DNA of 64,000 nt from Candidatus Omnitrophota bacterium (GCA_028717885.1 JAQUMX010000001.1:42409-106408), one strand, 5' to 3'. Shown: positions 12,087 through 28,549, counted from the stretch's first letter. Made by a program: numbers and translations. The notes: generated by a model from the letters alone, not told the origin.

Positions 12087-12093
12087 CTGTATT

Positions 12094-13086
12094 TTAATTA
12101 AGGTTATACCTCTTGATTGCGCTATCCAGTATTTTTCCGATCATCTGTTCATAAGTAATCCCGATCTCTTTTGCCACCAACATAAAAACATCTTCCGTGG
12201 AAAGCGAAGGAAGCGGGTTAATTTCCAAAACAAAAGGGTTCCCCTCGTTATCTACGCGGAAATCTACCCTCCCAAAATCACGGCATTCAACCGCAGTATA
12301 AGTCTTTAAAGCCAAATCCTCGATTTTTTTCCTTAATTCCGGAGCGAGCCTCTCCGGACAAACATATTCCAGCCTGTCGGAAGTAATCCTGGCAAAGGTA
12401 TAGAATTTATCGTTAAGCTTGAACCTGCCGTCAATTTTAATCTGTACGATGGGCAACACCTCCGGCTGGTCATTTCCCACGATTGCCACGGTAAATTCCT
12501 GGCCGCTGATAAATTCCTCGACCAGCGCCGGCTGTTTATAGGTAGTCACGATAAATTCAACCTGTTTTTTTAGCTCATCCATATTTTCCACGCGGGAATT
12601 TTCGCTCAAACCCTTGGAAGAGCCTTCAAAACGCGGTTTTACGATTAAAGGAAACTTGCAATGGTCCGCATTTACCAATTCCTCCGTATTTTTTACCTCG
12701 AAAAATTTCGGCGTAGGGATTTTTTCCGCGATAAAAATCTTTTTTGCCATCACCTTATCCAAGGTAAGCCCCAATGTCAAGGCATCGGCCCCGACAAAAG
12801 GTATTCCTGCCATTTCCAGAACTACCGGCACTTGCGATTCGCGGTTCCTGCCCGTCATACCCTCGGAAATATTAAAAACAATGTCAACTTTCAACGAATC
12901 GATTTTTTCCAGAAGGTTGGTGACATTGCCGATACGCTCGACCTTAAAGCCGTTTGCCTCGATAGCCTTGGCAATGACGTCGATAGTGGATGGCGCGTCG
13001 AATTCCGCATTTGCATCCTCCGGATCATCGGCTTTAAATTTATAATCTGTTTTTAAATCGTAGGTTAACCCGACTTTTTTAGCCAT
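12094..13086 (-). CDS. ATP-grasp ligase, D-alanine--D-alanine ligase-like (second tandem paralogue)
   Basis: 330 aa, same architecture as the neighbouring ligase (FPLIVKPRFEGSSKGL; EEFISGQEFTVAIV; LEINPLPSL). Confidence 0.7.
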   Translation of the reverse strand: MAKKVGLTYDLKTDYKFKADDPEDANAEFDAPSTIDVIAKAIEANGFKVERIGNVTNLLEKIDSLKVDIVFNISEGMTGRNRESQVPVVLEMAGIPFVGADALTLGLTLDKVMAKKIFIAEKIPTPKFFEVKNTEELVNADHCKFPLIVKPRFEGSSKGLSENSRVENMDELKKQVEFIVTTYKQPALVEEFISGQEFTVAIVGNDQPEVLPIVQIKIDGRFKLNDKFYTFARITSDRLEYVCPERLAPELRKKIEDLALKTYTAVECRDFGRVDFRVDNEGNPFVLEINPLPSLSTEDVFMLVAKEIGITYEQMIGKILDSAIKRYNLN

Positions 13087-13317: not shown

Positions 13318-14265
13318 TTAGCGCCTAAGAGGCAATTTTCTTTTGCGAAAAGCGGCAGGAAAATATTTCATCTTATGGAGGAATAAAACAATCAGATGGG
13401 GGCTATGGATAATGCAATACCCCCACTGCAATAATTCAAAGAGGATTATGCCCGGTAAATGCAGGATAAAGGCGAAAAATTTTTCATTTTTGATGATTGC
13501 TAAATAGCGGTTCTTAATCAAATCCAGGTGGCGCTCCTGGCTTAAATATCTTCTGGCAAAAGGCTTGCCAATACCTTTTGATTCCAGCCGGAATGAGCCT
13601 CCGCGTACATGATAAGCGATTGCCGCAGGCGTATAATATGCTTTCCATCCCGCGCGCTGCGCCCTCCAGGCGAGATCAAGGTCCTCGTAAAACACGTGGA
13701 ATGCCGGATCAAAATAGCCTTCCGGTTCTTTGATTTCTTCCAGCATTTTTTTGCGGTAAAATAGTACCGCGCCATTGACGCCAAAAACATACTCCGGTTT
13801 TTCGTATTGCCCGCAGTCTATCTTTCCATAGCCTCTTTCCTTAGCAGTGCGCCAGTAACTTAAAAACAGGCCGGTAGTGTCGATTGTTCTGGCGTCGCTA
13901 CGTAAAATCTTTCCGCTTACCATGCCGATTTTTTTATCTTGCGAAATAGCCTTCAAGGCCTGCTCAATATATCCGCACTCAAGCGTAACATCGTCGTTCA
14001 AAGCAAAAATATACTCGCCGCAAGAATCATTAATCCCCTGGTTTAAGGATTCACAATAGGATAATGGCCCTTTAAATAATTTTACCGGCGGGTAGAGCTT
14101 ACGGATTCCTTGGCCGAAAGCAACTTGAGATGAATTATCGATAACAATGAGTTCGAAATCTTGGATGGTTTGCTTCAAACATGAAGCAAGGCATTTTTGC
14201 AGATAATCCTGCTTGCCGCAGGTAACAATAATGATACTAACGATTGTGTTTGACGGTTTTTCCAT
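13318..14265 (-). CDS. Family 2 glycosyltransferase
   Basis: N-terminal IIIVTCGKQDYLQKCLASCLKQT...ELIVIDN and DxD region (LNDDVTL), typical GT-A fold GT2. Confidence 0.75.
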   Translation of the reverse strand: MEKPSNTIVSIIIVTCGKQDYLQKCLASCLKQTIQDFELIVIDNSSQVAFGQGIRKLYPPVKLFKGPLSYCESLNQGINDSCGEYIFALNDDVTLECGYIEQALKAISQDKKIGMVSGKILRSDARTIDTTGLFLSYWRTAKERGYGKIDCGQYEKPEYVFGVNGAVLFYRKKMLEEIKEPEGYFDPAFHVFYEDLDLAWRAQRAGWKAYYTPAAIAYHVRGGSFRLESKGIGKPFARRYLSQERHLDLIKNRYLAIIKNEKFFAFILHLPGIILFELLQWGYCIIHSPHLIVLFLHKMKYFPAAFRKRKLPLRR

Positions 14266-14287: not shown

Positions 14288-15400
14288 ATGCTTTTCATAC
14301 TACTATCTCTAATCTGCGTACGCCCTTTTATCTCTTGCCTGGCTTACCCAAGAGAAAATTTTTTCTTCTCTCTCGCTTCTACAGCCATCTTATTAGCCTA
14401 TCTTGCAATAAAAGGAAAAAATGTTTCTCTGCCGCGCAGCTGTAGGTTCGCTTTACTTGCCTTCCTTACATGCCTGCTGATTACGGTAATCTTTTCTTTT
14501 AATACTTTCGTTTCTTTAAGAGAAGCAAATAACTATCTTCCGGCAATCTTGTTTTTCTTTGCGGCTTGCGCTTTTTCGCAAAGAGAGCGCAAGCGGGTTT
14601 TATTTGTTATCCTGGCTACCGGATTAGTCGTGGCTTTGGCCGCGATCTATCAATATTTCTTCGGCTTTGAACACACGCTCTACTTTATAGAAGGCCAGAA
14701 AAACCGCAATTATTTCACCCTAGAATACCTGACGAGAAAACGCGCCTTTTTCCCGTTTGTTACCCCGAATGCCCTGGGAGGATACCTGGCAATGATTCTG
14801 CCTCTTTGTTTTATTTTCAAAAAAATCCGCTGGGTAATTGTTCCCCTTGCCTTTGCTTTGCTTCTTACTAAATCATTAGGCGCTATTTTAAGTCTAATCT
14901 TTGCGCTCTTAATGTATTTTATAATTACCGGGTCTTCAAAAAAGAAACTGATTCTCACAGGATGCGGATTATTAATAATTCTTTCGGCCGTATTCTTAAA
15001 CCGGCTTTCCGCACGGAGCGAACACCTTCAGCCGTTATTTTCTTCTCTGATGCGCATCAATTACTGGCAGCAAACCCTGCAGATTATCCAACGCTCCCCG
15101 CTTCTGGGTGTCGGCCCCGGGGATTTTAACCTTCCGCAATCGCGCTATGCCCATAACGCATATTTACAAATCTGGGCAGAGATGGGTATTTTTACTTTGC
15201 TTTCCTTTTTCTGGTTAATCTCGGCAGGCATTGCTTCTGCAGCCAAAAGAATTAAAGAGCTTATGAATAAAAAAGAGGCGCTTTTTTTACTCACGGCATA
15301 CCTGGTTTTCCTACTGCATAATGTTATAGATTTTACTTTTTTCCTGCCGGAAGTATCCTGGTACTGGTGGATCATTGCGGGGCTATTAGCCGGGGCTTAA
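14288..15400 (+). CDS. Polytopic membrane protein, O-antigen ligase/polymerase (Wzy_C)-like
   Basis: 370 aa, about 10 predicted TM helices, with a periplasmic loop region (RYAHNAYLQIWAEMGI) reminiscent of Wzy_C. One of only two plus-strand genes. Confidence 0.55.
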   Translation: MLFILLSLICVRPFISCLAYPRENFFFSLASTAILLAYLAIKGKNVSLPRSCRFALLAFLTCLLITVIFSFNTFVSLREANNYLPAILFFFAACAFSQRERKRVLFVILATGLVVALAAIYQYFFGFEHTLYFIEGQKNRNYFTLEYLTRKRAFFPFVTPNALGGYLAMILPLCFIFKKIRWVIVPLAFALLLTKSLGAILSLIFALLMYFIITGSSKKKLILTGCGLLIILSAVFLNRLSARSEHLQPLFSSLMRINYWQQTLQIIQRSPLLGVGPGDFNLPQSRYAHNAYLQIWAEMGIFTLLSFFWLISAGIASAAKRIKELMNKKEALFLLTAYLVFLLHNVIDFTFFLPEVSWYWWIIAGLLAGA

Positions 15401-16288
15401 GAGGCGCTTCTTAAGCATCTTTGGCGCCAATACCAACACTTCAAAGCTTGCCTTAAGAAAATAACCCGGGCTAGTGAGCAGCATATAAAGGTTGCGCCAA
15501 AGGTCGTAAATCAGGAATACGAAAGGAAGCCTCAATACCCCCCATATTGATTCGTTCTTTAAGAGCATAAAATAGCGGTTGCGCATGCTTAAGTATTGGG
15601 TAAACCTGCCTCTTTTACGCGACACCCCTCCCAGATGGATACAGACTGCCTGCGGGCAATAAAATGAGCGCCAGCCTTTTTTTTGCAAACGCCAACTTAA
15701 GTCAATATCCTCGGCAATACAAAAAAAATCTTCATCGAAATATTCCCCATCCTGCCGCACACTCTCCAGGGATTTTTTTCGATAAAGCGCTGCGGCAGCG
15801 CTTACCCCGAAAATAAATCCGGGGCAGTTATATTTTTCATTATCCGGCTCTCCGTAGCCTCGGTTATAGAACCTGCGTAGCAAAGAGAGTTTGATGCCTA
15901 TAGTATCAATCAGCTTACCCGAATTTTGCAGCACCTTAGGCTGGATAGCGGCGATTTTTTCGTCGTTTTCTGCCGCAGAACAAATTTTTTTTAAAAAATG
16001 TTCCTGCAATTCAATATCATCATTCAGGGCCAGGACAAAATCCCCCCTGGATTCTTTTATCCCCCGGTTATAAGCTTTGGCAAAACCGGCATTAAAACTG
16101 TTCTTAATCAATTTTATCTGCGGGTAATTTTCTTGCAGGAGTTTCAGCGTTTGATCCGAAGAGGCATTGTCTACGACGATTACTTCCAGGGGTAAAACAC
16201 CCTGCGCAAATAAAGATTTCATCAGGGGCAAGATTTTGCTTTGCGAATTATAGGTGGCTACGACAACAGAAATTCCAGGCATGGGCAC
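15386..16288 (-). CDS. Family 2 glycosyltransferase
   Basis: ISVVVATYNSQSKILPLMKSLFAQ...EVIVVDNASSD; LNDDIEL DxD motif. Confidence 0.75.
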   Translation of the reverse strand: MPMPGISVVVATYNSQSKILPLMKSLFAQGVLPLEVIVVDNASSDQTLKLLQENYPQIKLIKNSFNAGFAKAYNRGIKESRGDFVLALNDDIELQEHFLKKICSAAENDEKIAAIQPKVLQNSGKLIDTIGIKLSLLRRFYNRGYGEPDNEKYNCPGFIFGVSAAAALYRKKSLESVRQDGEYFDEDFFCIAEDIDLSWRLQKKGWRSFYCPQAVCIHLGGVSRKRGRFTQYLSMRNRYFMLLKNESIWGVLRLPFVFLIYDLWRNLYMLLTSPGYFLKASFEVLVLAPKMLKKRLLSPG

Positions 16289-16300
16289 AATAAGGAAAAT

Positions 16301-17692
16301 CTATTCCTGGTTATAGGGTTTGCGAAAAAGAGAGCGGAATTTTGCGAAAAATTTCCCAGGATAATTCGATAAATACGCAGCCGGGGAAGAAATTACTTCC
16401 TGCAAAGAAAGATTCTGATCTTCGGCAACGCTGATGGACTCATACAATAATTTCTTCAGGTGTTCGTAATCGATCCCTCTAATCTTCGGCTCGTAACTAC
16501 TCCTGCGGTAACGATCATGGCTATCGATCAATGAAAGGTTATTCTCTATACAATACTGAAAAAGATCGCTCCCGGGATGCGGGGTATAATAAGCCGGGCT
16601 ACAGTGATAAGGCCGGATTTTTTTAATCATTGTTACCGTCTCTTCCTGCTCTTCCTTAGTCTCCGTCGGCACGCCCAACATATAATTCGCCCAGATTTTG
16701 ACATTTAGCTTATGGCAAATTTCTGCGGCCTCCAGGTTCTGCTCTAGGCTACATCCCTTCTTTAAAAATTTTAAGATCCGGGGGCTGCCGCTTTCAAATC
16801 CGATCAGGCAAAGGATTAGCCCGCAATCACGCAAACGCCTAAATGCATCCTTATTTTTCACGATCAGATCCGCCCTGCTTTGGCAAACAAAGGGCTGCCG
16901 GAAACCGTTGCCCTGGTATTTATCGCAAAATTCCAATACCCATTTCCTATCTTCGGTTAGGCAGTCATCATGAATCATGAATGAGTTAAACCTGAATTTG
17001 CTGCGCAGGGCTTTTAATTCCTCGATAACATTGTCAACGCTCCTGCGCCGCACGTTCTTGCCGAAAATAATCCTTTCCGCCGGCTGGCAATAATTACAGT
17101 TATAGGTGCAGCCGCGGCCGGCAATAATCGTGACAAATGGCCGCAACAAAAACGGGACAAAAGGCTCTTCCGGTAAAGCAAACAGGCCCCTGTCCACAAA
17201 AGGCAACCTATCCAAGTCAGGTTTTTCTCCGTAAATTAAACGCGGATTTTGTTCTCCTGCTTCTTCCTTACGCAAGAAGTCTAATAATGAAACCTCCGCT
17301 TCGCCGACAAAAACGTGGTCTATATTATTATTTGCCGCAAGCTCTTCCGGGGCAATTGAGGCGTGCGCGCCACCCACCAACACCTTAACCCTAGGACGGA
17401 TGCGCTTAATCGTTTCTATGCATTTATTCACCGGATTGAAATCAACGCTCATCATGGTTAATCCGGCGATATCGAAATCCTGTTCTGTCAATACACTTTC
17501 AAGATGCTCCCAGCCTTTTAGCCTTCGCAGGTCGATCAGGCTTACGGGATAGCCGGCAGATTTCAAAGTGGCACTTATGGAACAAAGGCCATGGTTCATC
17601 CAGCTGCCTTCATTCCCGGAAGCATTATTAAAACCGCTCTCGGTTATGCCGGCATAGAAGAGAATTATTTTTTTCTTGAAAGAAGGTCCCAT
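16301..17692 (-). CDS. B12-binding-domain radical SAM enzyme (class B, probable C-methyltransferase or related)
   Basis: 463 aa. N-terminal cobalamin-binding Rossmann-like region, then CTYNCNYC radical SAM cluster motif. Confidence 0.75.
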   Translation of the reverse strand: MGPSFKKKIILFYAGITESGFNNASGNEGSWMNHGLCSISATLKSAGYPVSLIDLRRLKGWEHLESVLTEQDFDIAGLTMMSVDFNPVNKCIETIKRIRPRVKVLVGGAHASIAPEELAANNNIDHVFVGEAEVSLLDFLRKEEAGEQNPRLIYGEKPDLDRLPFVDRGLFALPEEPFVPFLLRPFVTIIAGRGCTYNCNYCQPAERIIFGKNVRRRSVDNVIEELKALRSKFRFNSFMIHDDCLTEDRKWVLEFCDKYQGNGFRQPFVCQSRADLIVKNKDAFRRLRDCGLILCLIGFESGSPRILKFLKKGCSLEQNLEAAEICHKLNVKIWANYMLGVPTETKEEQEETVTMIKKIRPYHCSPAYYTPHPGSDLFQYCIENNLSLIDSHDRYRRSSYEPKIRGIDYEHLKKLLYESISVAEDQNLSLQEVISSPAAYLSNYPGKFFAKFRSLFRKPYNQE

Positions 17693-17838
17693 TTTAAACT
17701 CTTGTAATCAAGAAATAATTCCAATTCATTTTCTTTGATTAATTTATTCCTTTGAATAAGCGCCCTTTTCTTAAGCATCGCCCTAAGCATCGGCGCAGTA
17801 AGCAGAAATGACTTAAATCTTAATCCTCTGGGGATTTC

Positions 17839-18684
17839 TTATATCGGCATCAACAAAAAGGAAGTTTCTTTTAAGAATATTTTTCCGAAATTTTTCTTTA
17901 GATAGCGCGCAGGGAGGTTTTTAATAATACAACAGTATCGGTTGCGCAGGCCAAAAATAAGGTAATCTTTTTTCATCGGCGTATTATCTTTTCTGGTAGC
18001 GCCGCGTTCGTGATAAGCTACTGCGGAAGGGTTATAAACACATTTCCAGTTCCTTAAACACGCCCTCCAGGAAAGGTCCACATCTTCCACGTAATTCACG
18101 AAGTCCTCGTCAAAAAATTCCCGTCCGGATCTTATATCCTCCAGCATCGCTTTCCGGTATAAAGGAGCTGCCCCGCATGCGCCAAATACAAGCGCGCCTT
18201 CAGAATTATCGTATTGACCGCGGTCTTCTTCGCTCTGCCCCCGCGGATGCATGAAACAATGCCGCATGGTAATGCCGGTAGAATCCAGGATTTTGGTTTT
18301 GTTGCCGTTAGTCTGCCGGTAAAGCTTCCCGGAGACAATGCCGATTGATGAATCGTTTTTCATCATCTTTACCATCTCCCCCACAAAATCCGGTTCCAAA
18401 AATACGTCGAAATTAAGCGGCAAAATAAATTCGCCTTTGGCTAGATGAATGCCTAAGTTGTGGCTCTTGGAAAACCCTAAGTTTTCTTTATTTTTTACAA
18501 TCTTTACCTGAGGAAAATTTTTCGCGATGTATTCCAGAGAAGAATCCGTAGAACTGTTATCTACGACTATGAGTTCAATCGCAGGATAAAGCTGTTTCTT
18601 TATGGAATCCAGGCATTTCTCGATATAGCCCGATGAATTCCAATTTACGATGGTAATAGAAACTAACCCTTCAGCGCTTTTCAT
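17839..18684 (-). CDS. Family 2 glycosyltransferase
   Basis: VSITIVNWNSSGYIEKCLDSIKKQ...ELIVVDNSSTD; LNFDVFL. Confidence 0.7.
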   Translation of the reverse strand: MKSAEGLVSITIVNWNSSGYIEKCLDSIKKQLYPAIELIVVDNSSTDSSLEYIAKNFPQVKIVKNKENLGFSKSHNLGIHLAKGEFILPLNFDVFLEPDFVGEMVKMMKNDSSIGIVSGKLYRQTNGNKTKILDSTGITMRHCFMHPRGQSEEDRGQYDNSEGALVFGACGAAPLYRKAMLEDIRSGREFFDEDFVNYVEDVDLSWRACLRNWKCVYNPSAVAYHERGATRKDNTPMKKDYLIFGLRNRYCCIIKNLPARYLKKNFGKIFLKETSFLLMPI

Positions 18685-21671
18685 AACGGATCGTATAGTT
18701 TTGGGTCATCTAACGCTTTATCATATTTTTTTGCTCCGGGAAAAAGATGGCATCGTTGGCATTCATACGGCTTATCTTCCTGCTTCATTTTGCTCCTGAA
18801 CTTTTCGAACATTTCCCCGTTCCATACCTGTTCTGCATCTTGAGAATTTAAATCGCCGAGTACCCTTCCGGTAATACAACACGGTGCCACTGTCCCGTTA
18901 AAACGCACGAAAAACGTCTTCCATGGTTCAAGGCAAAAATCCTTTTCGCAGGCGCTTAACGCTTCGCTTTTCTTGCGGTCAGGCTCATCAAGAATAAATT
19001 TTTTTGCTACTGCCGAGAGCGATTCCGGGAACATTAAGGAAAAAACCATTCCTTTTTCTTTATATAACTGATCGCGCAATTTTTCTGTCTGGGCATAATA
19101 CTGATTGGCTAACTCCACTGTTTGTGGCAGGTTCGTTCTCTCTTTTTCCATCTCGGGAGTATGGGCAACAAGGTTGGTTATCGTAATTCCGCGCACATGG
19201 TGCGCATATGCCTTCTCTAGCAAGATAGGCAACTCCGCCAGGTTTGAGGCGTGCGCCACAAATTCGATGAAAATTACCGGTGGGGCAAGCTGTAAGTCAT
19301 CGCTGTTTTTTATCGGATTATATTTGGCTTTCATCTCATTCAATCGTGCGATATTCCCCCATAATTTTTCCCATCCGTCGGTTCCGTGGATCTTTTGATA
19401 AGTCTGCCTTGTCCCGGCGCTGCAGGAGAATGTAATCTCTGCCTGATTGTATTTTACCATAGCCTCGGCGATTCTCGCATTAAGCAATAACCCATTGGTA
19501 TTAAATGTCACTCTTGCTTTTTTCTTCGCGGCGATTTTTAAAAAACGGATAAAATCCGGATGCAGCAACGTTTCGCCGCGGCCAAAAAGCGCTAATTTAG
19601 TGTCCGGGGAGAATAAACGGGAAAGCCGCTTAAATACCTTCCTGGTCATAAACCCCTCGTCAGAAGCGGCTAATTTATAGTAACTACGCCCGCACATCCG
19701 GCATTGCAAATTACATTTCGTGCTGATTTCCGCATAAATTAAAATTGGCTTGCTGAAAAGAATAACCGGGAGGAATTTACATTCCGCTTCATTTACTTGG
19801 ATGTTCGTTCGCTGCTGAGCCACTCTCTTAACAAAACGCCTTTCGGCTAAGTTACGCATTAAAAGGAAAATCCTGTAAATCCTGGTGGAAGTAATTTTAT
19901 TTAACCGTTTGGAAATTGCGGTATATTCATTTTCCATACTTAAGAAACTTTCCCTTGCGCGGCCCAGGCTTCCCTCTAAGTCTGCTACCTTAGCCTGAAG
20001 ATTATCCCGCTCTCCGATAAACGCATTCAACTGATTATTCAAGTTGTTAATATGGAACTTAACCTGCTCTCTTTCCGCCTCGAGGTTATGGATATGGCCA
20101 TGAAGCGATTTACGCTCTTCGGAAAATGCCGCGACCTGCTTTTCCAGGTTATTAACATGCTCCTTGACGTTTTCTCGTTCTGATTCGAGGTTTCCGATAT
20201 GAAGTTTTATCTGTTTTCTTTCCGTTTCCAGGTTACCTATATGCAGTTTAACCTGCTCCCTTTCCGTTTCCAGGTTACGAATGTGGGTATTTAACGAGGT
20301 GTATTCTTCTAAAGATGCGGTAATTTGACTTTCCAGGTTACGCGCATGATTTTGCGCATTATCTCTTTGTGCCTGGAGGATAGTAATTTCCTCTTTAAGT
20401 TTTTCAATGTGCCTGGCTTCGGGGACAAGAAAAAGCTGCCCTTTCCTTTTAGCGCTCAAGCTATCCGGGGCAAGCTGCGGAGAAGCTACCCACGCTCTTA
20501 ACGCCTGAGTGGTTTTTTCAAAAGAATATTCCTCTATCACGAAATGTTTGGCTCGCGCTGCATACTGCTGCAATAATTTCGGCTGCGCAGCCAATTCCAG
20601 GATCATCTGCGCTAAAGCGCTCGGGTCTTCCTGTGTAAATGAGAATGCCATTTGATTGCGGCTTAAAGCCTGGGTCAATTCGCTGGGGGCAGTGGTTAAA
20701 ATTGGCAACCCTGCTTTCATCCAATCCAGCAGCCTGTGGCGGCTGCCTAAAACAACTTCATAACAATTCTTATCGATATTTATCGCGAGATTGCTCTCCA
20801 GGTAAATATTCGGTAAGTCATCTAAAGCAAGCCATCCGAGTAAAATATACCTGTTTTTGTGTGGAGAGGAATTTATTCTTTCGCTAAATTTCTTATAAGT
20901 AGTTTCATCCTGCCCGGGAATTACGCCACCCGTAGAAACAAATTTTATTTTCTTATTTTTGTTCATGGCAATTTCCAGCGCCGCAAACAACGTATCGGTA
21001 TCAGCCCAGGTATTATATCCGCCGGACCAGAGGATTACAAAATCATCATTTTGCACTAACCTTCCCCGGATAATATTTTTTACAAGCTTATGCTCCCCTT
21101 TTTCTATAGCGCAGGGCATTACATGGGCAAATTCATAACCCACTGTCTCCTTGTTAAGCCTGCCGGCATCCCCTAATTTTCCCATCAGGGCGAATTTTTG
21201 CGGCAAAGAATAACAGGAAAAAATATCCCCTCTTGCCAGAATATTCCTTTCCAAATCTAAAAAAAGGTAGAGATAATCATCATTATTTTCGGTGAATGAT
21301 TTCAATTGCGCCTCGGCAAGCAAATCTCCCCGGTCAAACCAGACCGGTTTTGCGGTGTTTAGGCCTATTACAGCTTTTGACTGCAGAAATGAGCTGATCG
21401 AAACAATACAATCGGGGCGAAAGCGGTCGTGAATTTCCTGAAGCGCCGCAGGAGTAGTAAACTGTTGTTGGTTCAGGGAAAAAACTGATAATCCATTGGC
21501 TTTTGGCTCTTTGACGGCAGAGTTAACGGTATTTAAACAAACCAGGCATACTTGATGCCCATCATCAATTAAAGGCTTTGCCATCTGCCAGGTCCTAATA
21601 CCGGGGCCGCTTAAGAAATTTTCGTTCTCTATTGGCAGCGGCCTTTCTCCGACAATCAAAACTTTACTCAT
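18681..21671 (-). CDS. Tripartite fusion protein: N-terminal GT-B (GT1/GT4-like) glycosyltransferase, central coiled coil with 14-residue repeats, C-terminal radical SAM + SPASM domain
   Basis: 996 aa. N-terminal region is glycosyltransferase-like. Residues ~400-590 are heptad-rich (HIGNLETERKQIKL repeats). C-terminus has CNLQCRMCGRS (CxxxCxxC) and Cys-rich SPASM-like motifs (CQRCHLFPG; CLEPW...APCCITG). Confidence 0.65.
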   Translation of the reverse strand: MSKVLIVGERPLPIENENFLSGPGIRTWQMAKPLIDDGHQVCLVCLNTVNSAVKEPKANGLSVFSLNQQQFTTPAALQEIHDRFRPDCIVSISSFLQSKAVIGLNTAKPVWFDRGDLLAEAQLKSFTENNDDYLYLFLDLERNILARGDIFSCYSLPQKFALMGKLGDAGRLNKETVGYEFAHVMPCAIEKGEHKLVKNIIRGRLVQNDDFVILWSGGYNTWADTDTLFAALEIAMNKNKKIKFVSTGGVIPGQDETTYKKFSERINSSPHKNRYILLGWLALDDLPNIYLESNLAINIDKNCYEVVLGSRHRLLDWMKAGLPILTTAPSELTQALSRNQMAFSFTQEDPSALAQMILELAAQPKLLQQYAARAKHFVIEEYSFEKTTQALRAWVASPQLAPDSLSAKRKGQLFLVPEARHIEKLKEEITILQAQRDNAQNHARNLESQITASLEEYTSLNTHIRNLETEREQVKLHIGNLETERKQIKLHIGNLESERENVKEHVNNLEKQVAAFSEERKSLHGHIHNLEAEREQVKFHINNLNNQLNAFIGERDNLQAKVADLEGSLGRARESFLSMENEYTAISKRLNKITSTRIYRIFLLMRNLAERRFVKRVAQQRTNIQVNEAECKFLPVILFSKPILIYAEISTKCNLQCRMCGRSYYKLAASDEGFMTRKVFKRLSRLFSPDTKLALFGRGETLLHPDFIRFLKIAAKKKARVTFNTNGLLLNARIAEAMVKYNQAEITFSCSAGTRQTYQKIHGTDGWEKLWGNIARLNEMKAKYNPIKNSDDLQLAPPVIFIEFVAHASNLAELPILLEKAYAHHVRGITITNLVAHTPEMEKERTNLPQTVELANQYYAQTEKLRDQLYKEKGMVFSLMFPESLSAVAKKFILDEPDRKKSEALSACEKDFCLEPWKTFFVRFNGTVAPCCITGRVLGDLNSQDAEQVWNGEMFEKFRSKMKQEDKPYECQRCHLFPGAKKYDKALDDPKLYDPL
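19990..20300. repeat. Tandem 42-nt repeats encoding the 14-aa coiled-coil repeat
   Basis: Units such as tttccgtttccaggttacctatatgcagtttaacctgctccc recur head-to-tail with small variations. Confidence 0.6.
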
Positions 21672-22585
21672 TATTTTAGCCTTCTCTTGGTATTAATTTT
21701 CCCTGCCAACCTCTTAGATAAAGAAACCGGAAGATACATCATCCCGGATAAGTAAGCAAGGATTAGCTGTTTCTTGAACTCAGCCGGTTTAAAATCCCTG
21801 AACCAGAGGAATTCTTTTTTTAAGAAATCCTTCAACAGGTACTTCAGGCTATAATTGTTGGCCAAAAAAACCAACCGGCTCTTATGATAGCGGTAATAGA
21901 AACGGGCAGTCAGGCCTTGAGTGGAATAATTTTCCCTGTGCATCAGGACAGAACTAGGCACAAAGACGACTCTTTTGCCGGCCTTCTTGGCACGAAACGC
22001 CAGGTCCGCATCTTCATAATAAAGAGGGGAATAACTGGCATCGAAATAGCCGACCTCCTTAAGTAGGCCGCGTTTAAAACCCATGGAAGCTCCACAGACA
22101 TAATCTACTTCCTGTAAAACATTATACTGCCCTTGGTCCATTTCGCCCCTACCGATATGCAAAGAAAGCCCGTTGTCAAAAATCATTCCTCCGGCATATT
22201 GGATGGTTTTTCCGTCTAAATCGAGGATTTTTGACCCGGCAATTGCGACATCCTGATCATATATCAATACCTTAACCAGTTCCGAAAGCCAGCTCTTTGT
22301 CACTACGGTATCCATATTCAATAAAGCAATAATTTCACCGAGCGAATTCCTGATCCCCCGGTTTACCGTGCGCACAAAACCGCGGTTCCGGCGGCTTTTT
22401 ATGATCTGCACTTGAGGGAATTTTTGTTTTATTTTAGCCAGGGAACTATCCGAAGAGCAGTCATCCGCCACGATTACTTCGAAATTCGGATAATCGCAAG
22501 CATAAACCGATTGCAGGCAATCGCAGATTACCTTTTCACCGTTATAATTAGGTATAATTACAGAGGCAAGCGGGTATATTTTCAT
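21671..22585 (-). CDS. Family 2 glycosyltransferase
   Basis: ASVIIPNYNGEKVICDCLQSV...EVIVADDCSSD; LNMDTVV. Confidence 0.75.
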   Translation of the reverse strand: MKIYPLASVIIPNYNGEKVICDCLQSVYACDYPNFEVIVADDCSSDSSLAKIKQKFPQVQIIKSRRNRGFVRTVNRGIRNSLGEIIALLNMDTVVTKSWLSELVKVLIYDQDVAIAGSKILDLDGKTIQYAGGMIFDNGLSLHIGRGEMDQGQYNVLQEVDYVCGASMGFKRGLLKEVGYFDASYSPLYYEDADLAFRAKKAGKRVVFVPSSVLMHRENYSTQGLTARFYYRYHKSRLVFLANNYSLKYLLKDFLKKEFLWFRDFKPAEFKKQLILAYLSGMMYLPVSLSKRLAGKINTKRRLK

Positions 22586-24243
22586 GGCAGCCGCACTTTC
22601 CAGTTATGCTCCAGATAAACCGTCCCGTGGTCGCCTTTAGAAAAAACCATATGCAGCGGGTAAAGCGCATGATAAAGGCTAAGGAATTTTTTTTCACGTT
22701 CATTCCAAACCCCAAAAGAAACCCGGTATTCCCCCGGCAACAAAGGAAGGCTGCGAAAGATAAATTCTCTTTTATTGGTATGCCCCATCTTCGATACCGC
22801 GCCTTGGCAAAAAATGCGGTCATCCCTGTAGAAACCAACCCAGATATAATTCTCGGGGTCATATTTTTTGATCTCGGGGAAAAAAACAGATAATTTAACA
22901 AGTTCTCCGGTGTGGAATTTATTTTTCTCCTCATGTAAAGAGTTATAAACCCTAAGGGAGCCTGGCCCAGTATCCGGCGATTCTAATTTTTGCATCCAGT
23001 TATTCCTTAATGTCTCCAGGTCCGGGTGGATTTTTCCTGAATCCGATGGAAACTTGGAAAAGCCAGCCAGAGGCATATTCAAAAGCTGGTTACTTAAATC
23101 GGCTTGCCCCTTAACTAAAAATTTATAACAGCCATCATGGTAATCAAAAGCAACTGTTTCATTCTTATCCCAAATCGCTATTGACACCCTGTAATCCCCG
23201 GGAGCCAATAATACACTCTGATAATTCAAGGTAAACGACCCTCTTCCTTTTTTTAAGATAGGGAATACCTGGCCGTCAAAAGCGGTATTCGGGCCATAAC
23301 AATATACCCCGTCGTTACGGAAGATTGCCACCCCGAAGTGAGGCTCTTTGATATCATTTAACGCCGTAAAATCTACCTTTATCCGCAACGGGGCGCGGCT
23401 CTTTAAAGACACACAATTAAAACCAAAACGGTTTTTAAAAGCTACCTTTTCTATGACTACTTCTTTTGTGCCTAAAATTTTACCCCAATTCTGCGGTTCA
23501 TCCGCCCATTTCTTGGTATTTTCAAAAATGCTTTCCGCTGCATTTGTCGATCCGATGAAAAACCCTTCTTTCGCCAAAAGTTCCCGATACTGCCTTACCG
23601 CTTCTTCTTTTTCTCCGAAATAAACGAGTCTGCCGTGCTCAAGCAAAGCGATCCGGTCACAGATCCTCTCCATAAGCTCCATATTCTGGTTCGTAATCAC
23701 CAGGGTTTTTCCGGCGCGCCTAAAATCCATAATTTTCTCGAAACATTTATTTTGAAAAAGCAGGTCCCCTACGGCAAGGATTTCATCGATAATCAGGATA
23801 TCAAAATCCAGATTAGCAATAATGCTAAAGCCCAGGCGTAACCGCATCCCCTGTGAATAAGTGCCTAACGGTTGGTCGATAAAATTACCCAGCTCTGAGA
23901 ACCCGATAACACCAGAAAGCTTTTCCTCTATTTCTGTGCGGTTAGCGCCTAATATTGCGCCGTTTAAAAAGATATTTTCCCGGCCGGTCAATTCATCCTG
24001 GAACCCCACGCCAAGGTTAAACAACCCTAATTTCCGGCCCCTGGTTTTTACCTCGCCCTGCGTTGGATATAGCACATCGGCAATGATATTAAGCAAAGTG
24101 GTTTTCCCCGCCCCGTTCCTGCCGATTATCCCGACAATCTCCCCCTTTACAACATCAAGAGAAACGTCTTTCAAGGCCCAGAAGCCGCTTGGCTGGTAAT
24201 TTTTCCCTACCTGCGACAGTTCAATTATTTTTGTGTTTTGCAT
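22582..24243 (-). CDS. ABC transporter ATP-binding protein, polysaccharide export type (Wzt-like) with C-terminal substrate-binding extension
   Basis: Walker A GRNGAGKTTLL, signature YSQGMRLRLGF, Walker B ILIIDEILAVGD. Extra ~250-aa C-terminal domain, as in O-antigen/teichoic-acid exporters. Confidence 0.8.
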   Translation of the reverse strand: MQNTKIIELSQVGKNYQPSGFWALKDVSLDVVKGEIVGIIGRNGAGKTTLLNIIADVLYPTQGEVKTRGRKLGLFNLGVGFQDELTGRENIFLNGAILGANRTEIEEKLSGVIGFSELGNFIDQPLGTYSQGMRLRLGFSIIANLDFDILIIDEILAVGDLLFQNKCFEKIMDFRRAGKTLVITNQNMELMERICDRIALLEHGRLVYFGEKEEAVRQYRELLAKEGFFIGSTNAAESIFENTKKWADEPQNWGKILGTKEVVIEKVAFKNRFGFNCVSLKSRAPLRIKVDFTALNDIKEPHFGVAIFRNDGVYCYGPNTAFDGQVFPILKKGRGSFTLNYQSVLLAPGDYRVSIAIWDKNETVAFDYHDGCYKFLVKGQADLSNQLLNMPLAGFSKFPSDSGKIHPDLETLRNNWMQKLESPDTGPGSLRVYNSLHEEKNKFHTGELVKLSVFFPEIKKYDPENYIWVGFYRDDRIFCQGAVSKMGHTNKREFIFRSLPLLPGEYRVSFGVWNEREKKFLSLYHALYPLHMVFSKGDHGTVYLEHNWKVRLP

Positions 24244-24258
24244 AATCTTAAGTGATTT

Positions 24259-25134
24259 TTAATAAGCCAGGTAATCGTTAATATATTTTCTATTTTTGAA
24301 ATAGAAGATAAACCCGATTACCATAACCGCCACGGCGATTAATGGCATGGTTACTGCCCAGGCGAACCAATGCACATCTAGTTTAATTGCCTGATAAAAA
24401 CCCTTTAAAAGAGTAAGCCTGTAAAAACTTAAAATGGCAACAAAGGGGTTCCAAAGATATAAGCAATAGGCTTTTTGGCTGAGCGCTTGCCTTACCAGAG
24501 AAAGCGAATAAAAAACAGGGGTAAGATAAAATAATGCCTGCAGCAAAATCTCCAACATATATTTTGTGTCACGCCAACGGATATAGGCAAGGCAAGCTAT
24601 CAATGCCAGGCCAAAAGTTATCATACAATGCATCAATAATACAGCAGGAAGAAAAATAATAAAAAGCGGTACACCTTTTAAAATAAAGAGCGTAAAAAAC
24701 ACCAAGATTGCCAGGGAAGGAAGAAAATTCAACAAGTTTGCAATAACCAATGATAAGGGAATCAAATAATGAGGAAAATTTGCTTCTTTAATCAAATTCC
24801 TGTTATCCATCAGGCAAGTAGCAGCAGAAGAAACAGCCTCCTGAAAAAACCGCCAGGTAAAAACTGCGGTCATCAGGTACAAGAGAAAATTTGCCTCTTT
24901 GATTTCTATTTTCATAAAAACGGAAAAGATCACGTAAAGGATCACGCTAAAAAAAAGCGGGGAAAGAAACGCCCAGAGAAAACTTAAAACCGGCCTTCTG
25001 TAGCGGGCTCTTAAGTCTTTGGCAATAAGCTCCCGCAGCAACGACCTTCTGGAAATAATTTCTTGGAAAATATTTTTCATTGTGGCATCAATTAAGCAAA
25101 GCTTTCTGCTATCTGTTTGCCGTCCAACAGGCAA
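24259..25134 (-). CDS. ABC-2 type transporter permease (Wzm-like)
   Basis: 291 aa, six TM helices, ABC-2 family features. Immediately downstream of the ATPase. Confidence 0.7.
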   Translation of the reverse strand: MPVGRQTDSRKLCLIDATMKNIFQEIISRRSLLRELIAKDLRARYRRPVLSFLWAFLSPLFFSVILYVIFSVFMKIEIKEANFLLYLMTAVFTWRFFQEAVSSAATCLMDNRNLIKEANFPHYLIPLSLVIANLLNFLPSLAILVFFTLFILKGVPLFIIFLPAVLLMHCMITFGLALIACLAYIRWRDTKYMLEILLQALFYLTPVFYSLSLVRQALSQKAYCLYLWNPFVAILSFYRLTLLKGFYQAIKLDVHWFAWAVTMPLIAVAVMVIGFIFYFKNRKYINDYLAY

Positions 25135-26393
25135 TCTTCCATGGACTTATAGCTCCAGGCGCCGTAACGGCCAAGCGGAAAAACTCTTTGTTTACGCAAA
25201 TACCCGTTAATACTCTTTAAAGACGGCGCGCGTAACCGGTCATAAATTATATAGCCGTATTTAATATCGTTGCTGTCTTGAATTAGTATTTTATCTTTTG
25301 GCTTGATGACTTTTGCGTGCTTAAGGCCATTGATAATTTTCCCGCCGATTCTTTTTTTATCCAACGGCTTTTCCCCGGAATAGGAGACTTCTGCATATAC
25401 CGAGCTTGCTCCTGGCGGAGCAAGTGAAGCGGAAAAGTTTTTTGGGAACCCCGCGCGGAAAAAAACGAATTTCTTTTCCGGAAAATAAACCCAGTGTTTA
25501 TCAGGGGTCCCATTGCCTGAAATCCCCAGGTTAAGGTTAAAAATGGAATTGTATTTTAAGTTCTTTAAAGCGCCTCTGACGCCGGAAGGCAGGTTCTTGC
25601 CCAGTGCCGCAATTTCCGGCAAGGGCAAGGTCAGGATTAAAGCATCGTATCGGTATCTCCTCCCGTTTTTAAAACTGACCTCTCTTTTTTTAAAATCCAA
25701 TGATTCCGCCTCATAGCCCAGATAGAGGTGCTTAACTTTCGCAGAAAACGCTTTTGACACCTCCTGGATGCCCCCTTGTTTTGGATACCAAAATGCCGCG
25801 TTATAGCCAAAAACTTTTTTATTCTCGCGTAACGCTCCCGAGATAATTTCTTTTAAGGTTGGCCTCGGGATAAATCCGCCAAACCAGTCGCAAGTAAGCT
25901 CCTTGCAATCCACGGTCCAGAATTTCTGGTTATAAGGAACCATGAAATGCCGGGCAATTCCTTTGCCGAAGGTTAGGTGCATCCATTCAAGAAATGAGAA
26001 GCCATGTTTTGCTTTATGCGGCAGATTGCGCTGCGCATCGATAAATCCGCTTAAGCATTCTTTAATCACCGGCCGCGGCAAGCCAAAAAGGTTTGCCTGG
26101 AACGGATAACGAGTAAAGCGGTTATACGAATAAACCCAAGCGCTTTTTTTATGCTCGATCAGGTTTTCCTGAAATAAATTTCTTATTAAATCCAGTGCAT
26201 AGGCAGAGCGAAAATGCAATAAATGCCCGCAATAATCAAAAGTAAAACCGGACATGGTTTTTGAACGGCAGAGCCCGCCGCACTCAGCCTCCTTTTCAAA
26301 CACCAGGCATTCTTTATTGAGCCTTTGTAAATGCCAGGCCGCGCTTAAACCGGACAATCCTGCCCCTAAAATCAAAATCCGTTCTTTAGTCAT
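25092..26393 (-). CDS. FAD/NAD(P)-binding oxidoreductase (amine-oxidase / UDP-galactopyranose-mutase-like fold)
   Basis: N-terminal dinucleotide-binding motif ILILGAGLSGLSAA...VFEKEAECGG. Confidence 0.6.
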   Translation of the reverse strand: MTKERILILGAGLSGLSAAWHLQRLNKECLVFEKEAECGGLCRSKTMSGFTFDYCGHLLHFRSAYALDLIRNLFQENLIEHKKSAWVYSYNRFTRYPFQANLFGLPRPVIKECLSGFIDAQRNLPHKAKHGFSFLEWMHLTFGKGIARHFMVPYNQKFWTVDCKELTCDWFGGFIPRPTLKEIISGALRENKKVFGYNAAFWYPKQGGIQEVSKAFSAKVKHLYLGYEAESLDFKKREVSFKNGRRYRYDALILTLPLPEIAALGKNLPSGVRGALKNLKYNSIFNLNLGISGNGTPDKHWVYFPEKKFVFFRAGFPKNFSASLAPPGASSVYAEVSYSGEKPLDKKRIGGKIINGLKHAKVIKPKDKILIQDSNDIKYGYIIYDRLRAPSLKSINGYLRKQRVFPLGRYGAWSYKSMEDCLLDGKQIAESFA

Positions 26394-27381
26394 TAATGCT
26401 TACCCTGGACATATTTTTCGCTAACAACAAGGCGGTTAAAAAAACAACTGCCACAGCTATAGCTGCCTGCCAATTCGCAGACCTATAAGTAATGATTGCG
26501 GCAAAAACAAAAAACAGGTTCCAAAAAATAGCGAAGCCGAGGGCCTTTTTCTTCGAATAACCCATTGCCAAACACCTTAATACCAGATGGTCATTGCTTT
26601 TCTTAAAAGGGATTTTTTTCTTTTTTAGGCGCATCAAAATAAGAAATAGCGTATCGTAAATAGGAAAACCTAAGATTAATATCGGGGTCACTAACGCCAT
26701 CTTCTTATCCATCGGGGCATAACTTAAGGTCAAGGCCAGGCCCGAGAGTAAAAAGCCTAAAAAATGGCTCCCGGCATTCCCCATGTAAACGCGCGCCGGA
26801 GGCAGGTTATAGGCTAAGAACCCTAAGACACTGCCGATCATGGCAACCGAGACGACCATTACTTTAAGGTCATGGCTTAAAAAAGCAACCAGCAAAAAAG
26901 CAGCGCCGATAATTGCGGCGGTAAAAGCCGTCACCCCATCCATAATGTCCAGGTGGTTAAAGGCATTGGTAATCGCCAGTACCCAAATTACCGTAATTAT
27001 GCTATTCACAACATTGCCGAGATAAACGATCTGGGTTTTTACGCCAAAACTGATCAAGACAAAGGCACAAATGATTTGCGCCGTAAACTTTAGCCCCACG
27101 GAGAGTTCCTTCCAATCATCTATAGCTCCGAAGGTAAGCATAAGAAGCGAAGAGAAAAAGAGCCCGAAGATTTCTTTGGAAAATATCTTCATAATAAAAA
27201 GGCCGTAACTGCCAACCAGGAAAAATGCCGCTGCTAAGGCAATTCCTCCGACAACTGCTACATCCCCCCTAGAAAAAACGCCGTATTTAAATGCGGCCCT
27301 TCTTAAAAGAAAGGTCAAGAATAGCCCGGATAAAAAAGCCGCGGCAAAAATGATCAAAAGATTAATTATTGGCGCGTTCAT
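26386..27381 (-). CDS. Polyprenyl-phosphate sugar-1-phosphate transferase (GT4 MraY/WecA family)
   Basis: 331 aa, ~10 TM helices; DDxxD-like and NxxNxxDGIDGL-like motifs (NAFNHLDIMDGV). Confidence 0.7.
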   Translation of the reverse strand: MNAPIINLLIIFAAAFLSGLFLTFLLRRAAFKYGVFSRGDVAVVGGIALAAAFFLVGSYGLFIMKIFSKEIFGLFFSSLLMLTFGAIDDWKELSVGLKFTAQIICAFVLISFGVKTQIVYLGNVVNSIITVIWVLAITNAFNHLDIMDGVTAFTAAIIGAAFLLVAFLSHDLKVMVVSVAMIGSVLGFLAYNLPPARVYMGNAGSHFLGFLLSGLALTLSYAPMDKKMALVTPILILGFPIYDTLFLILMRLKKKKIPFKKSNDHLVLRCLAMGYSKKKALGFAIFWNLFFVFAAIITYRSANWQAAIAVAVVFLTALLLAKNMSRVSIND

Positions 27382-28549
27382 CGTACGTTTTATTTATCCC
27401 TTTATTGCGGGCCAAATCCGCATAAAGCTGCCGGTGCATGGCGCAGCTATTACGTAAATCAAATTCTGCTTTTAAAAATTCCAGGGAATCGCTGCCCATG
27501 GACTTTCTTAAGGCGTTGTTATATAAAAGAAAAATTATTTTTTCGGCTAAAGCAAGGGGGTCTTTCTGCGGGACAAGAAAACCGTTTTTACCATCCTTAA
27601 TCACTTCTTTGATTCCGCCTGTGTCCGTGGCTACCACCGGGCAGCCGCTGGCAAGCGCCTCCAGGGCAGAAATCGGCAAGCCTTCCCAAAGAGAAGTCAG
27701 CACTAAGCAGTCGGTAGCAGACAAAATCCGAGGGATATCTCTGCGCCAGCCGGTAAGAATGATTTTTTCCTGCAGGCCCAGCCCTAAAATTAACTTTTCG
27801 ATTTTCCCGCGTAATGCCCCGTCCCCGACCAAAATAAATTTTACGCCACTAATTTTTTTCAGTACTAAATCAGCAGCCCGGATAAAATCCAGTACCGACT
27901 TTTGCGGCTTAAAACAAGAAATATTAGCCACTAGAAGGCCATCTTCGCCTAACCCGAACTCTGCTTTTACCTGCCGGTTTTGGGTTTGTTGATTAAAAAA
28001 ACCGTAATCAATACCGTAACGGATTAAGTGATACTGATCAACTTTCCCCACAGAATGTGACAACCCTCTTTCCCGGTCATACTGAGAAACTACCACCAGC
28101 TTATCGCTAAAGCCGGCAGCTTTTCTTTCCAGAAAAAGATACAAATTGCGTAAGGCACGCGGCTGATATTGATGAAAAGGCCAACCATGCACGGTATGAA
28201 TAATACACTTAGCTCCTGCTAATTTTGCTGCTGTACGGCCGAGAATACCTGCTTTGGAACTATGGGTATGTACGATTTTAATTTTGTTCTTTTTGATGAA
28301 AGAGTAGATCTCGATTATCGCCTTCAGGTCTTTCCAAGGGTTTATCGTTCGCTCCAAAGACTTTGATTTTCTTATAGTTAAGCCGTTTATTTTCCCGAAG
28401 TCATCAGACAGGAGCCCTTCTTGGGCAGTAAATAAAAAAAGCCTGAAATCTTTATTTTCCGTGAGGCTGCGGATCAGCTCAAAGAGCTGCATTTGTGCTC
28501 CGCCTAGCTCTAACTTGGTGACAATAAAGAGGAGGTTTATCTCAGGCAT
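27362..28549 (-). CDS. GT-B fold glycosyltransferase (GT4/GT1 family)
   Basis: 395 aa. C-terminal EGLPISALEALASGCPVVATDTGG (EX7E-type motif region). Confidence 0.75.
   Translation of the reverse strand: MPEINLLFIVTKLELGGAQMQLFELIRSLTENKDFRLFLFTAQEGLLSDDFGKINGLTIRKSKSLERTINPWKDLKAIIEIYSFIKKNKIKIVHTHSSKAGILGRTAAKLAGAKCIIHTVHGWPFHQYQPRALRNLYLFLERKAAGFSDKLVVVSQYDRERGLSHSVGKVDQYHLIRYGIDYGFFNQQTQNRQVKAEFGLGEDGLLVANISCFKPQKSVLDFIRAADLVLKKISGVKFILVGDGALRGKIEKLILGLGLQEKIILTGWRRDIPRILSATDCLVLTSLWEGLPISALEALASGCPVVATDTGGIKEVIKDGKNGFLVPQKDPLALAEKIIFLLYNNALRKSMGSDSLEFLKAEFDLRNSCAMHRQLYADLARNKGINKTYDERANN

Follow-up and report, generated by a model that had tools for sequence, protein, structure and literature searches.

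The question raised by this locus is why a glycosyltransferase (GT) and a radical S-adenosylmethionine (SAM) enzyme should be joined through a long coiled coil in a single polypeptide. The protein is encoded in a 64,000-nucleotide stretch of DNA from a Candidatus Omnitrophota bacterium (GCA_028717885.1 JAQUMX010000001.1:42409-106408), hereafter the window, where positions 18681-21671 of the minus strand form one uninterrupted open reading frame (ORF) of 996 amino acids with an ATG start. It begins with a GT4-like GT-B glycosyltransferase (residues 1-403), continues through an uninterrupted heptad coiled coil (~418-595) and a short helix of basic and aromatic residues (595-622), and ends in a radical SAM enzyme (623-996). 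Its N-terminus agrees with those of its homologues, and an identical protein is held in NCBI (P0001), where the annotation of the metagenome-assembled genome (MAG) reads 'radical SAM protein [Candidatus Omnitrophica bacterium]'. We propose, with a probability of roughly 0.5, that this protein is the coiled-coil scaffold and ruler of a Wzm/Wzt polymerase-terminator machine, in which the GT-B domain would be the distal cap enzyme and the radical SAM domain would tailor the glycan close to the membrane.

An earlier sequence-only reading of this DNA had described the product as a GT-B, a coiled coil and a radical SAM/SPASM domain, and Pfam annotation agrees with the three calls in kind. Glycos_transf_1 and Glyco_trans_1_4 matched residues 205-391 with 31.5 and 32.8 bits, both just above their gathering cut-offs, and an N-lobe of GT4 type was faintly matched at residues 21-151. 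Many coiled-coil families crowded residues ~406-600, while Radical_SAM matched residues 649-780 (57.1 bits vs a cut-off of 29.5) and SPASM residues 913-975 (54.9 bits vs 21.5). The best NCBIfam matches, TIGR04317 (tungsten-cofactor maturase), TIGR04311 (rSAM_Geo_metal) and GPMC GT4, lay three- to fourfold under their cut-offs and were not used to assign function.

The fusion of GT-B, coil and radical SAM enzyme is a single continuous ORF in four independent, divergent Omnitrophota assemblies. The same arrangement was found in a protein of 963 aa (P0002, 48% identity, Omnitrophota MAG GCA_026387455), in one of 1218 aa (P0003, 41% identity, GCA_025490955) and in one of 1012 aa (L009:8255-11293), an ORF that the Joint Genome Institute gene call (P0043) had truncated; these three fusions are 41-55% identical to the window protein. 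In a partial sequence (P0040) the coil likewise runs unbroken into a radical SAM part that is 82% identical. A single-base indel in the MAG that falsely joined two adjacent genes would mimic such a protein, and the Omnitrophota single-amplified genome AM-312-C06 (L005) indeed holds GT-coil and radical SAM enzyme as separate genes which overlap by 14 nt in different frames, such that one indel would fuse both; furthermore, the next gene in the window carries an apparent error or nonsense codon. Nevertheless, the junction is continuous in P0040, P0002, P0003 and L009:8255-11293, all independent of the window, and GT-B-radical SAM fusions of greater divergence also exist, which makes an artefact of assembly or sequencing extremely unlikely. 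The fusion is genuine, and both the contiguity claimed for the ORF and the recurrence of its architecture in other assemblies could be confirmed.

The stand-alone radical SAM enzyme of L005 (L005:11952-13112, 386 aa) is 54% identical, end to end, to residues 623-996 of the window protein, and fused and split forms are interleaved in a neighbour-joining tree of the radical SAM domain. Therefore, fusion and fission occurred repeatedly, a pattern that would be expected of translationally coupled subunits of one complex. As a general rule, the earlier statement that glycosyltransferases and SPASM radical SAM enzymes are not normally fused holds; within this lineage, however, such fusion recurs, with GT-B-radical SAM proteins in two divergent clades and GT2-radical SAM proteins as the commonest form in metagenomes.

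The GT-B domain (20463-21671; this and all following window coordinates are on the minus strand unless stated otherwise) ends in the family motif WxxxPxxAPD. It displays what defines the GT-B class (PF00534/PF13692), namely a two-Rossmann fold and a donor-binding EX7E-type motif in the C-lobe. Motifs conserved in the family are spread over both lobes (PxWxDxxGxxMAEAQxK, GDxFSxVS, GRLN and YExxLGSRxRxLDW), besides LWSGGYNTW, in which SGGYNTW stands where GRxxxxKG is usual. Conservation of this kind speaks for an active enzyme whose donor site is unusual. The subfamily is large and distinctive, with 438 representatives at E <= 1e-30 in 1.84 billion clusters. In Omnitrophota, ~30 homologues are composed of GT-B, coil, an S(T/S)RxYRxY motif and a basic/aromatic tail of 10-15 residues that forms the end of the protein, and one relative (P0016) is arranged as GT-B-coil-GT2-GT4.

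The coiled coil (19887-20420), delimited by a heptad scan and by the Pfam coiled-coil matches, keeps a constant, proline-free heptad register from residue ~418 to ~595, that is over ~175 residues, which by our own arithmetic (0.148 nm per residue) would span ~26 nm if extended. It contains seven H[IVA]xNL(E) motifs, at residues 442, 463, 477, 491, 505, 526 and 540, and three of these are underlain by a 42-bp (14-codon) tandem DNA repeat of 2.3 copies (20184-20278; Tandem Repeats Finder score 127, 83% matches). The 14-residue repeats of the sequence-only reading are thus real, but they are fewer and less regular than it implied, with a spacing of either 14 or 21 residues. Among homologues, 128 to 211 residues separate the end of the GT from the S(T/S)RxYRxY motif, and the coil of P0016 reaches ~450 residues. 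Taken between these conserved flanks, the length of the coil modulo 7 differs among homologues, owing to a variable linker behind the GT.

At the end of the coil stand the S(T/S)RxYRxY motif and the basic/aromatic helix (residues 595-622, STRIYRIFLLMRNLAERRFVKRVAQQR; 19806-19889), identified from the motif and from a comparison of tails. This segment corresponds to the C-terminal end of the homologues that consist of GT and coil only, and in the window protein it is kept between coil and radical SAM enzyme. Its net charge is +3 to +5, and it may serve as a docking site or as a peripheral membrane anchor; since it adjoins the radical SAM domain, the latter would lie at the membrane end of the molecule. 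A related module was seen in a Planctomycetota radical SAM/SPASM enzyme (L006:5823-7751, P0039; 26% identical), which bears a C-terminal coil with HxxNLExERE-type repeats and a similar basic tail in a non-glycan context of S8 peptidase and acyl-CoA genes, so that the combination of coil and tail may be a portable scaffold.

The radical SAM domain (residues 623-996; 18684-19805), orthologous to the stand-alone enzyme of L005, possesses the characters of its superfamily (PF04055): the CX3CX2C cluster motif, read directly in the sequence (C653, C657 and C660; 19692-19715), a SAM-binding GGE-like motif (GRGE) and a partial TIM-barrel fold. Structure prediction, which the sequence-only reading had suggested as a check, gave for residues 619-996 a model with a predicted local distance difference test (pLDDT) of 90.3 and a predicted template modelling score (pTM) of 0.89, and this model superposes on SPASM/twitch enzymes, with scores of 22.9 for SkfB, 22.6 for SuiB, 22.1 for BlsE, 21.3 for anSME, 20.5 for DesII, 20.3 for MoaA and 15.7 for BtrN. 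The auxiliary Fe-S module (residues 908-975; 18747-18950) was defined by conservation and by alignment to BtrN. Across 28 family members the only invariant cysteines of this region are C913, C931, C971 and C974, C908 and C932 not being conserved, and the CX5CX3C that would follow C974 in the full seven-cysteine SPASM motif (CX9-15GX4C...CX2CX5CX3C...C) is absent. By sequence, the best match in the whole PDB was the twitch domain of BtrN (E = 2.5e-5 with the single sequence, 1.2e-7 with a profile); in the profile alignment, which covers BtrN residues 163-253, each of the four auxiliary cysteines has its counterpart in the pattern CX17C...CX2C, and NCBIfam N_Twi_rSAM matches residues 910-975. 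Only four invariant cysteines being present, the module is of the BtrN type. Thus the radical SAM part of the earlier domain call stands and the SPASM part is incomplete: from its sequence, the domain belongs to the twitch subfamily, together with BtrN, MoaA and SkfB, with one predicted auxiliary [4Fe-4S] cluster.

BtrN, the 2-deoxy-scyllo-inosamine dehydrogenase of butirosin biosynthesis and prototype of twitch enzymes, resembles the window domain in its four aligned auxiliary cysteines, and its substrate is carbohydrate-like. From SPASM enzymes such as anSME, SuiB and PqqE the window domain differs in that the CX2CX5CX3C cysteines of a second auxiliary cluster are absent and that it has neither an RRE (RiPP recognition element, RiPP being a ribosomally synthesised and post-translationally modified peptide) domain nor a peptide context. 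In addition, C750 (domain residue C132) of an FSCSAG motif, which directly follows a modelled strand (domain residues 127-131), is kept in at least 90% of members. Cysteines that donate hydrogen atoms are known in radical SAM epimerases, and, speculatively, C750 could act in this way. Many Omnitrophota proteins carry a conserved, beta-rich domain of ~130-170 residues (DPQIYLY...GQLIWW..DGRWQTS...LRLDP) ahead of the twitch enzyme; it makes up the N-termini of P0042, P0045 and P0048-P0052 (e.g. on the P0011 contig), and in P0003 it is an insertion at ~640-830. This domain had no match in Pfam and none by sequence in the PDB, and it may be a carbohydrate-binding module (CBM).

What such a protein could do is suggested by its neighbours. 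The gene stands in the middle of a nearly co-directional string of overlapping genes for Wzm, a Wzt with a Wzt_C CBM, a WecA-type enzyme, a GT1, four GT2s and a Wzy_C protein, and the same gene order is found in L001, L002, L005, L009 and L038. This is an ABC-transporter-dependent (Wzm/Wzt) polysaccharide locus. The Wzm ABC-2 permease is encoded at 24259-25134, and the Wzt ATPase (553 aa, 562-590 aa in its orthologues) at 22582-24243. After its ATPase, Wzt has two tandem Wzt_C-like CBMs, one at residues 258-378, matched by Pfam Wzt_C (1.3e-25), the other at ~425-553; homologous to each other (BLASTP E = 2e-7), the tandem modules may read a more complex terminal epitope. Upstream of Wzt and Wzm, a WecA/MraY-family polyprenyl-phosphate sugar-phosphate transferase (26386-27381) is the initiating enzyme and a GT4 glycosyltransferase (27362-28549; the GT1 of the gene string) is a candidate adaptor GT.

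Two GT2 genes directly abut the fusion. The stop of GT2a (21671-22585) overlaps the fusion start (TAATG), and GT2a is fused to the GT-B family elsewhere, in either order. On the other side, the start of GT2b (17689-18684; reading frame to the TAA 17839-18684) overlaps the fusion stop (ATGA). GT2b has an in-frame TAA at 17839-17841, beyond which homology to its orthologues of 339-388 aa runs on for ~50 codons, to the start of the next gene, in a single tblastn high-scoring segment pair of 62.6% identity; in L021, a 92%-identical relative, GT2b is continuous over 339 codons. Either a sequencing error or a nonsense mutation particular to this strain accounts for the TAA, and the catalytic GT-A part is intact despite it. 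GT2b is followed by a B12-binding radical SAM enzyme (B12-rSAM; 16301-17692), whose best NCBIfam match was HpnJ, below cut-off. An enzyme of this type accompanies the twitch enzyme in every case.

The distribution of these parts was compared across genomes and metagenomes. The twitch family is rare, with 9 loci in 185,579 GTDB species representatives, and occurs in Omnitrophota, Planctomycetota and Chloroflexota. In every GT-coil locus whose Wzt could be seen, seven in all, Wzt_C was present (the window, L001, L002, L005, L007, L009 and L038). Beyond Omnitrophota, the radical SAM enzyme occurs without any GT-coil protein and the Wzt is short or without Pfam Wzt_C (L008, L010, L014, L024 and L029); there it has an adjacent GT2b orthologue (39-56% identical) and a B12-rSAM immediately downstream (54-60% identical), GT2b being its most conserved partner across phyla. 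Therefore, coil and GT-B track CBM-gated export, and the radical SAM enzyme tracks GT2b and B12-rSAM instead.

Gene fusions tie the same components together. GT2b and the twitch enzyme form one ORF of 779-1004 aa in half of the 16 metagenome loci, always followed by a B12-rSAM (contigs L024, L026, L028, L029, L031, L032, L033 and L034; also P0076 and P0134), which is the commonest architecture of the family in metagenomes and appears to be undescribed. Other combinations join B12-rSAM, SPASM radical SAM and twitch enzyme (P0121), B12-rSAM, GT-B and radical SAM (P0186), or GT-B and a more divergent radical SAM enzyme (P0123, P0164, P0201 and P0205). These pairwise 'Rosetta stone' fusions link GT2a, GT-B, twitch enzyme, GT2b and B12-rSAM, and are strong evidence that all five serve one product as members of a single assembly complex. 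The proposal of the sequence-only reading that GT and radical SAM enzyme share a glycan substrate gains support from the conserved synteny and from the repeated fusions with GT2 and B12-rSAM partners. In L003, L004 and L038 a radical SAM/SPASM gene directly follows the GT-coil gene. Two consecutive genes of this kind, of ~365 and ~498 aa, occupy L003:4021-6607, L004:11830-14413 and L038:11440-14026; they are only 24-27% identical to the window domain and therefore represent a paralogous replacement at the same position of the locus. In GT2b-radical SAM fusions a hydrophobic helix is followed by a beta-rich linker domain of a different kind (L029:8522-11131).

Elsewhere in the locus, GT2c (15386-16288) and GT2d (13318-14265) flank a Wzy_C-domain, O-antigen ligase-like protein encoded on the plus strand (14288-15400). 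Between WecA and Wzm, all Omnitrophota versions of the locus (the window, L001, L002, L005, L009 and L038) keep a flavin amine-oxidase-like oxidoreductase (25092-26393) with weak similarity to PRK07208 hypothetical proteins and UDP-galactopyranose mutase. Just beyond the glycan cluster, a lysine-2,3-aminomutase-like radical SAM gene and two tandem ATP-grasp genes of the D-Ala-D-Ala-ligase family (9889-13086) may constitute an amino-acid-modifying or ligating set, and at 5084-8401 a secreted-type subtilase (Peptidase_S8) of 1105 aa carries four Big_9/cadherin-like repeats and a PKD domain.

Previous studies of ABC-transporter-dependent glycans provide the frame for our reading. In polymerase-terminator systems the chain is capped at its non-reducing end, and the CBM of Wzt recognises the cap or terminal group, so that export is restricted to capped chains (Kelly et al., JBC 2024, PMC11231755). 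An extended coiled-coil protein with the terminator at its distal end is the characteristic marker of this strategy, and the coil is established as a molecular ruler in WbdD of E. coli O9 and WbbB of K. pneumoniae O12 (PMC11231755). The window displays three features of this class: wzm and wzt in a polyprenol-linked glycan locus, a CBM on Wzt and an extended coil beside a catalytic module. The earlier suggestion that the coil is a molecular ruler fits a gene that adjoins wzm and a CBM-bearing wzt. Probably the coil does not serve to space two enzymes working one after the other on a single residue; what it holds apart in known systems is the terminator and the polymerisation site near the membrane.

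Therefore, we hypothesize the following course of assembly. The WecA-type enzyme would begin the chain on polyprenyl phosphate and the GT2s, on the cytoplasmic side of the membrane, would lengthen it. The fusion protein would oligomerise through its parallel coiled coil of ~26 nm and the basic/aromatic helix, at the coil's C-terminal end, would seat it on the membrane. Held at the distal tip, the GT-B could then cap only those chains long enough to reach it, the coil setting that length, and the tandem CBMs of Wzt would read the cap and release the chain for export. The C-terminal twitch enzyme would be membrane-proximal, beside the polymerising GT2s, where together with GT2b and B12-rSAM it may modify, by radical chemistry at a C-H bond, a sugar of the nascent lipid-linked glycan, probably the one that GT2b adds. 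Candidate reactions are oxidation, epimerisation, or priming for B12-dependent C-methylation; by analogy, the closest precedent is the BtrN-like two-electron oxidation of a sugar carbinol, with epimerisation or C-methylation priming equally possible. In sister genomes the radical SAM enzyme is a separate, translationally coupled subunit, and in the window a small indel would have welded it to the scaffold. That radical SAM chemistry takes place on a lipid-linked growing polysaccharide within the ruler complex, either as in-line tailoring by twitch enzyme and B12-rSAM or as the making of a radical-derived cap read by the Wzt CBMs, is put forward tentatively, at somewhat less than even odds.

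The polarity of this assembly could also be the reverse. If the radical SAM enzyme, alone or with B12-rSAM, made the cap read by the Wzt CBMs, the GT-B would be a polymerase or adaptor and the coil would still be the ruler between them. Known terminators are chemically diverse, comprising methyl, methyl-phosphate and Kdo groups (PMC11231755), the GT-B is frequently fused straight to the polymerase-like GT2a without a spacer, and in 8/8 GT-coil(-only) loci the radical SAM enzyme or a paralogue of it comes directly after the coil. However, the trio of radical SAM enzyme, GT2b and B12-rSAM persists in Planctomycetota-type loci without a coiled-coil protein and with a Wzt without Pfam Wzt_C, and so has no fixed tie to CBM-gated export; it is the radical SAM enzyme, not the GT-B, that the conserved basic helix adjoins; and most homologues are made of GT-B and coil only, as in known terminators. 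We regard the reversed arrangement as quite unlikely. Alternatively, the coil might measure nothing and serve to oligomerise or co-localise the enzymes of a glycan synthase, in which GT-B, GT2a, GT2b, radical SAM enzyme and B12-rSAM build and tailor each repeat unit. Such a role would suit the pairwise fusions that chain all five modules across genomes, many with short linkers, and the coil-plus-tail module that follows the radical SAM/SPASM enzyme P0039 outside a glycan context. Nevertheless, an uninterrupted coil of 175 residues far exceeds the needs of oligomerisation, its length varies widely between conserved flanks, partly through 42-bp repeats, and it strictly co-occurs with a CBM-bearing Wzt (7/7), which in the studied systems implies termination-gated export (PMC11231755); a scaffold without ruler function therefore seems unlikely.

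The sequence-only reading had also allowed for a peptide substrate, in which case the protein would be a RiPP-like maturase, its twitch enzyme cross-linking or epimerising a peptide or protein for later glycosylation by the GT. That a SPASM/twitch fold is shared with peptide-modifying enzymes does not favour this, the sugar-acting BtrN, BlsE and DesII being equally close. There is no RRE/PqqD-like domain between helix and radical SAM core, which begins ~20 residues after the linker, and the conserved synteny holds neither a precursor gene nor a conserved small ORF, its conserved neighbours being all glycan enzymes and the Wzm/Wzt exporter. A peptide maturase is thus very improbable, and this part of the earlier reading is not upheld.

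Several observations weigh against reading the protein as terminator and ruler. It has no sequence or fold relation to the catalytic domains of WbdD or to the GT99 domain of WbbB; the analogy to these proteins is purely architectural, and the ruler class is a functional one, not a sequence family. The hydrophobic moment of the basic helix is 0.35 in the window protein, which is moderate, and 0.46-0.55 in homologues; with such amphipathicity, membrane anchoring, and hence polarity, is something we infer. The negative set behind the CBM correlation is small, and the Wzt proteins of L010 and L035 carry C-terminal extensions without assignment. Finally, the GT-B family is often joined directly to GT2a by short linkers with no coil, an arrangement no less compatible with a role in polymerisation or side-branching than with termination.

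Coiled-coil rulers are the accepted means by which ABC-transporter-dependent pathways set polysaccharide length, and the window protein would be the first of them with a built-in radical enzyme. Radical SAM enzymes that tailor the sugars of small-molecule antibiotics are familiar (BtrN, DesII and BlsE); to our knowledge, such tailoring of cell-surface polymers is essentially uncharted. In the accessible literature, which did not cover the main survey of terminators, no radical SAM enzyme is described on a glycan ruler or terminator scaffold, or with O-antigen or Wzt. If our reading is true, in-line radical tailoring or a radical-derived cap would be a new chemical class in bacterial glycan assembly and chain-length control. 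The coiled-coil logic of such glycans is established; the radical enzyme hard-wired into it, and the wider loci of GT2, radical SAM enzyme and B12-rSAM, are unexplored and experimentally tractable. The locus family extends over Omnitrophota, Planctomycetota and Chloroflexota, and its natural GT-radical SAM and GT2-radical SAM fusions offer a handy entry to the reaction. Natural variants in coil length constitute a test set for the ruler model outside Enterobacteria, and the locus is informative about the envelope in Omnitrophota, a phylum most of which is uncultured.

Catalytic modules described so far on coiled-coil rulers are methyltransferases, kinases and glycosyltransferases (PMC11231755), and it is with these proteins that the window protein is best compared. 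WbdD (E. coli O9a/O8, K. pneumoniae O3/O5) shares with it a Wzm/Wzt-CBM locus, an N-terminal catalytic module, an extended coil and, after it, a short helix, putatively membrane-proximal in the window protein and C-terminal and amphipathic in WbdD (PMC11231755); this layout is matched by the homologues of GT and coil only and by residues 1-622 of the window protein. The two differ in their catalytic part, a methyltransferase with or without a kinase in WbdD and a GT-B in the window protein, and in the radical SAM enzyme, which WbdD does not have and which, in the window protein, replaces or follows the polymerase-recruiting region of WbdD. WbbB (K. pneumoniae O12/Raoultella terrigena), ORF6-O7 and ORF7-O4 are alike in uniting an N-terminal terminating enzyme and a coiled-coil ruler in a single polypeptide. 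In WbbB and ORF7-O4 the terminating enzyme is a GT, as proposed for the window protein, and WbbB and ORF6-O7 bear further catalytic modules after the coil. In both of the latter, these are polymerising GTs C-terminal to the coil, and ORF7-O4 consists of a terminating GT followed by a C-terminal coil (PMC11231755). Both arrangements recur in the GT-B family of the window protein, where P0016 (GT-B-coil-GT2-GT4) mirrors WbbB and the homologues of GT-B and coil only mirror the topology of WbdD and ORF7-O4.

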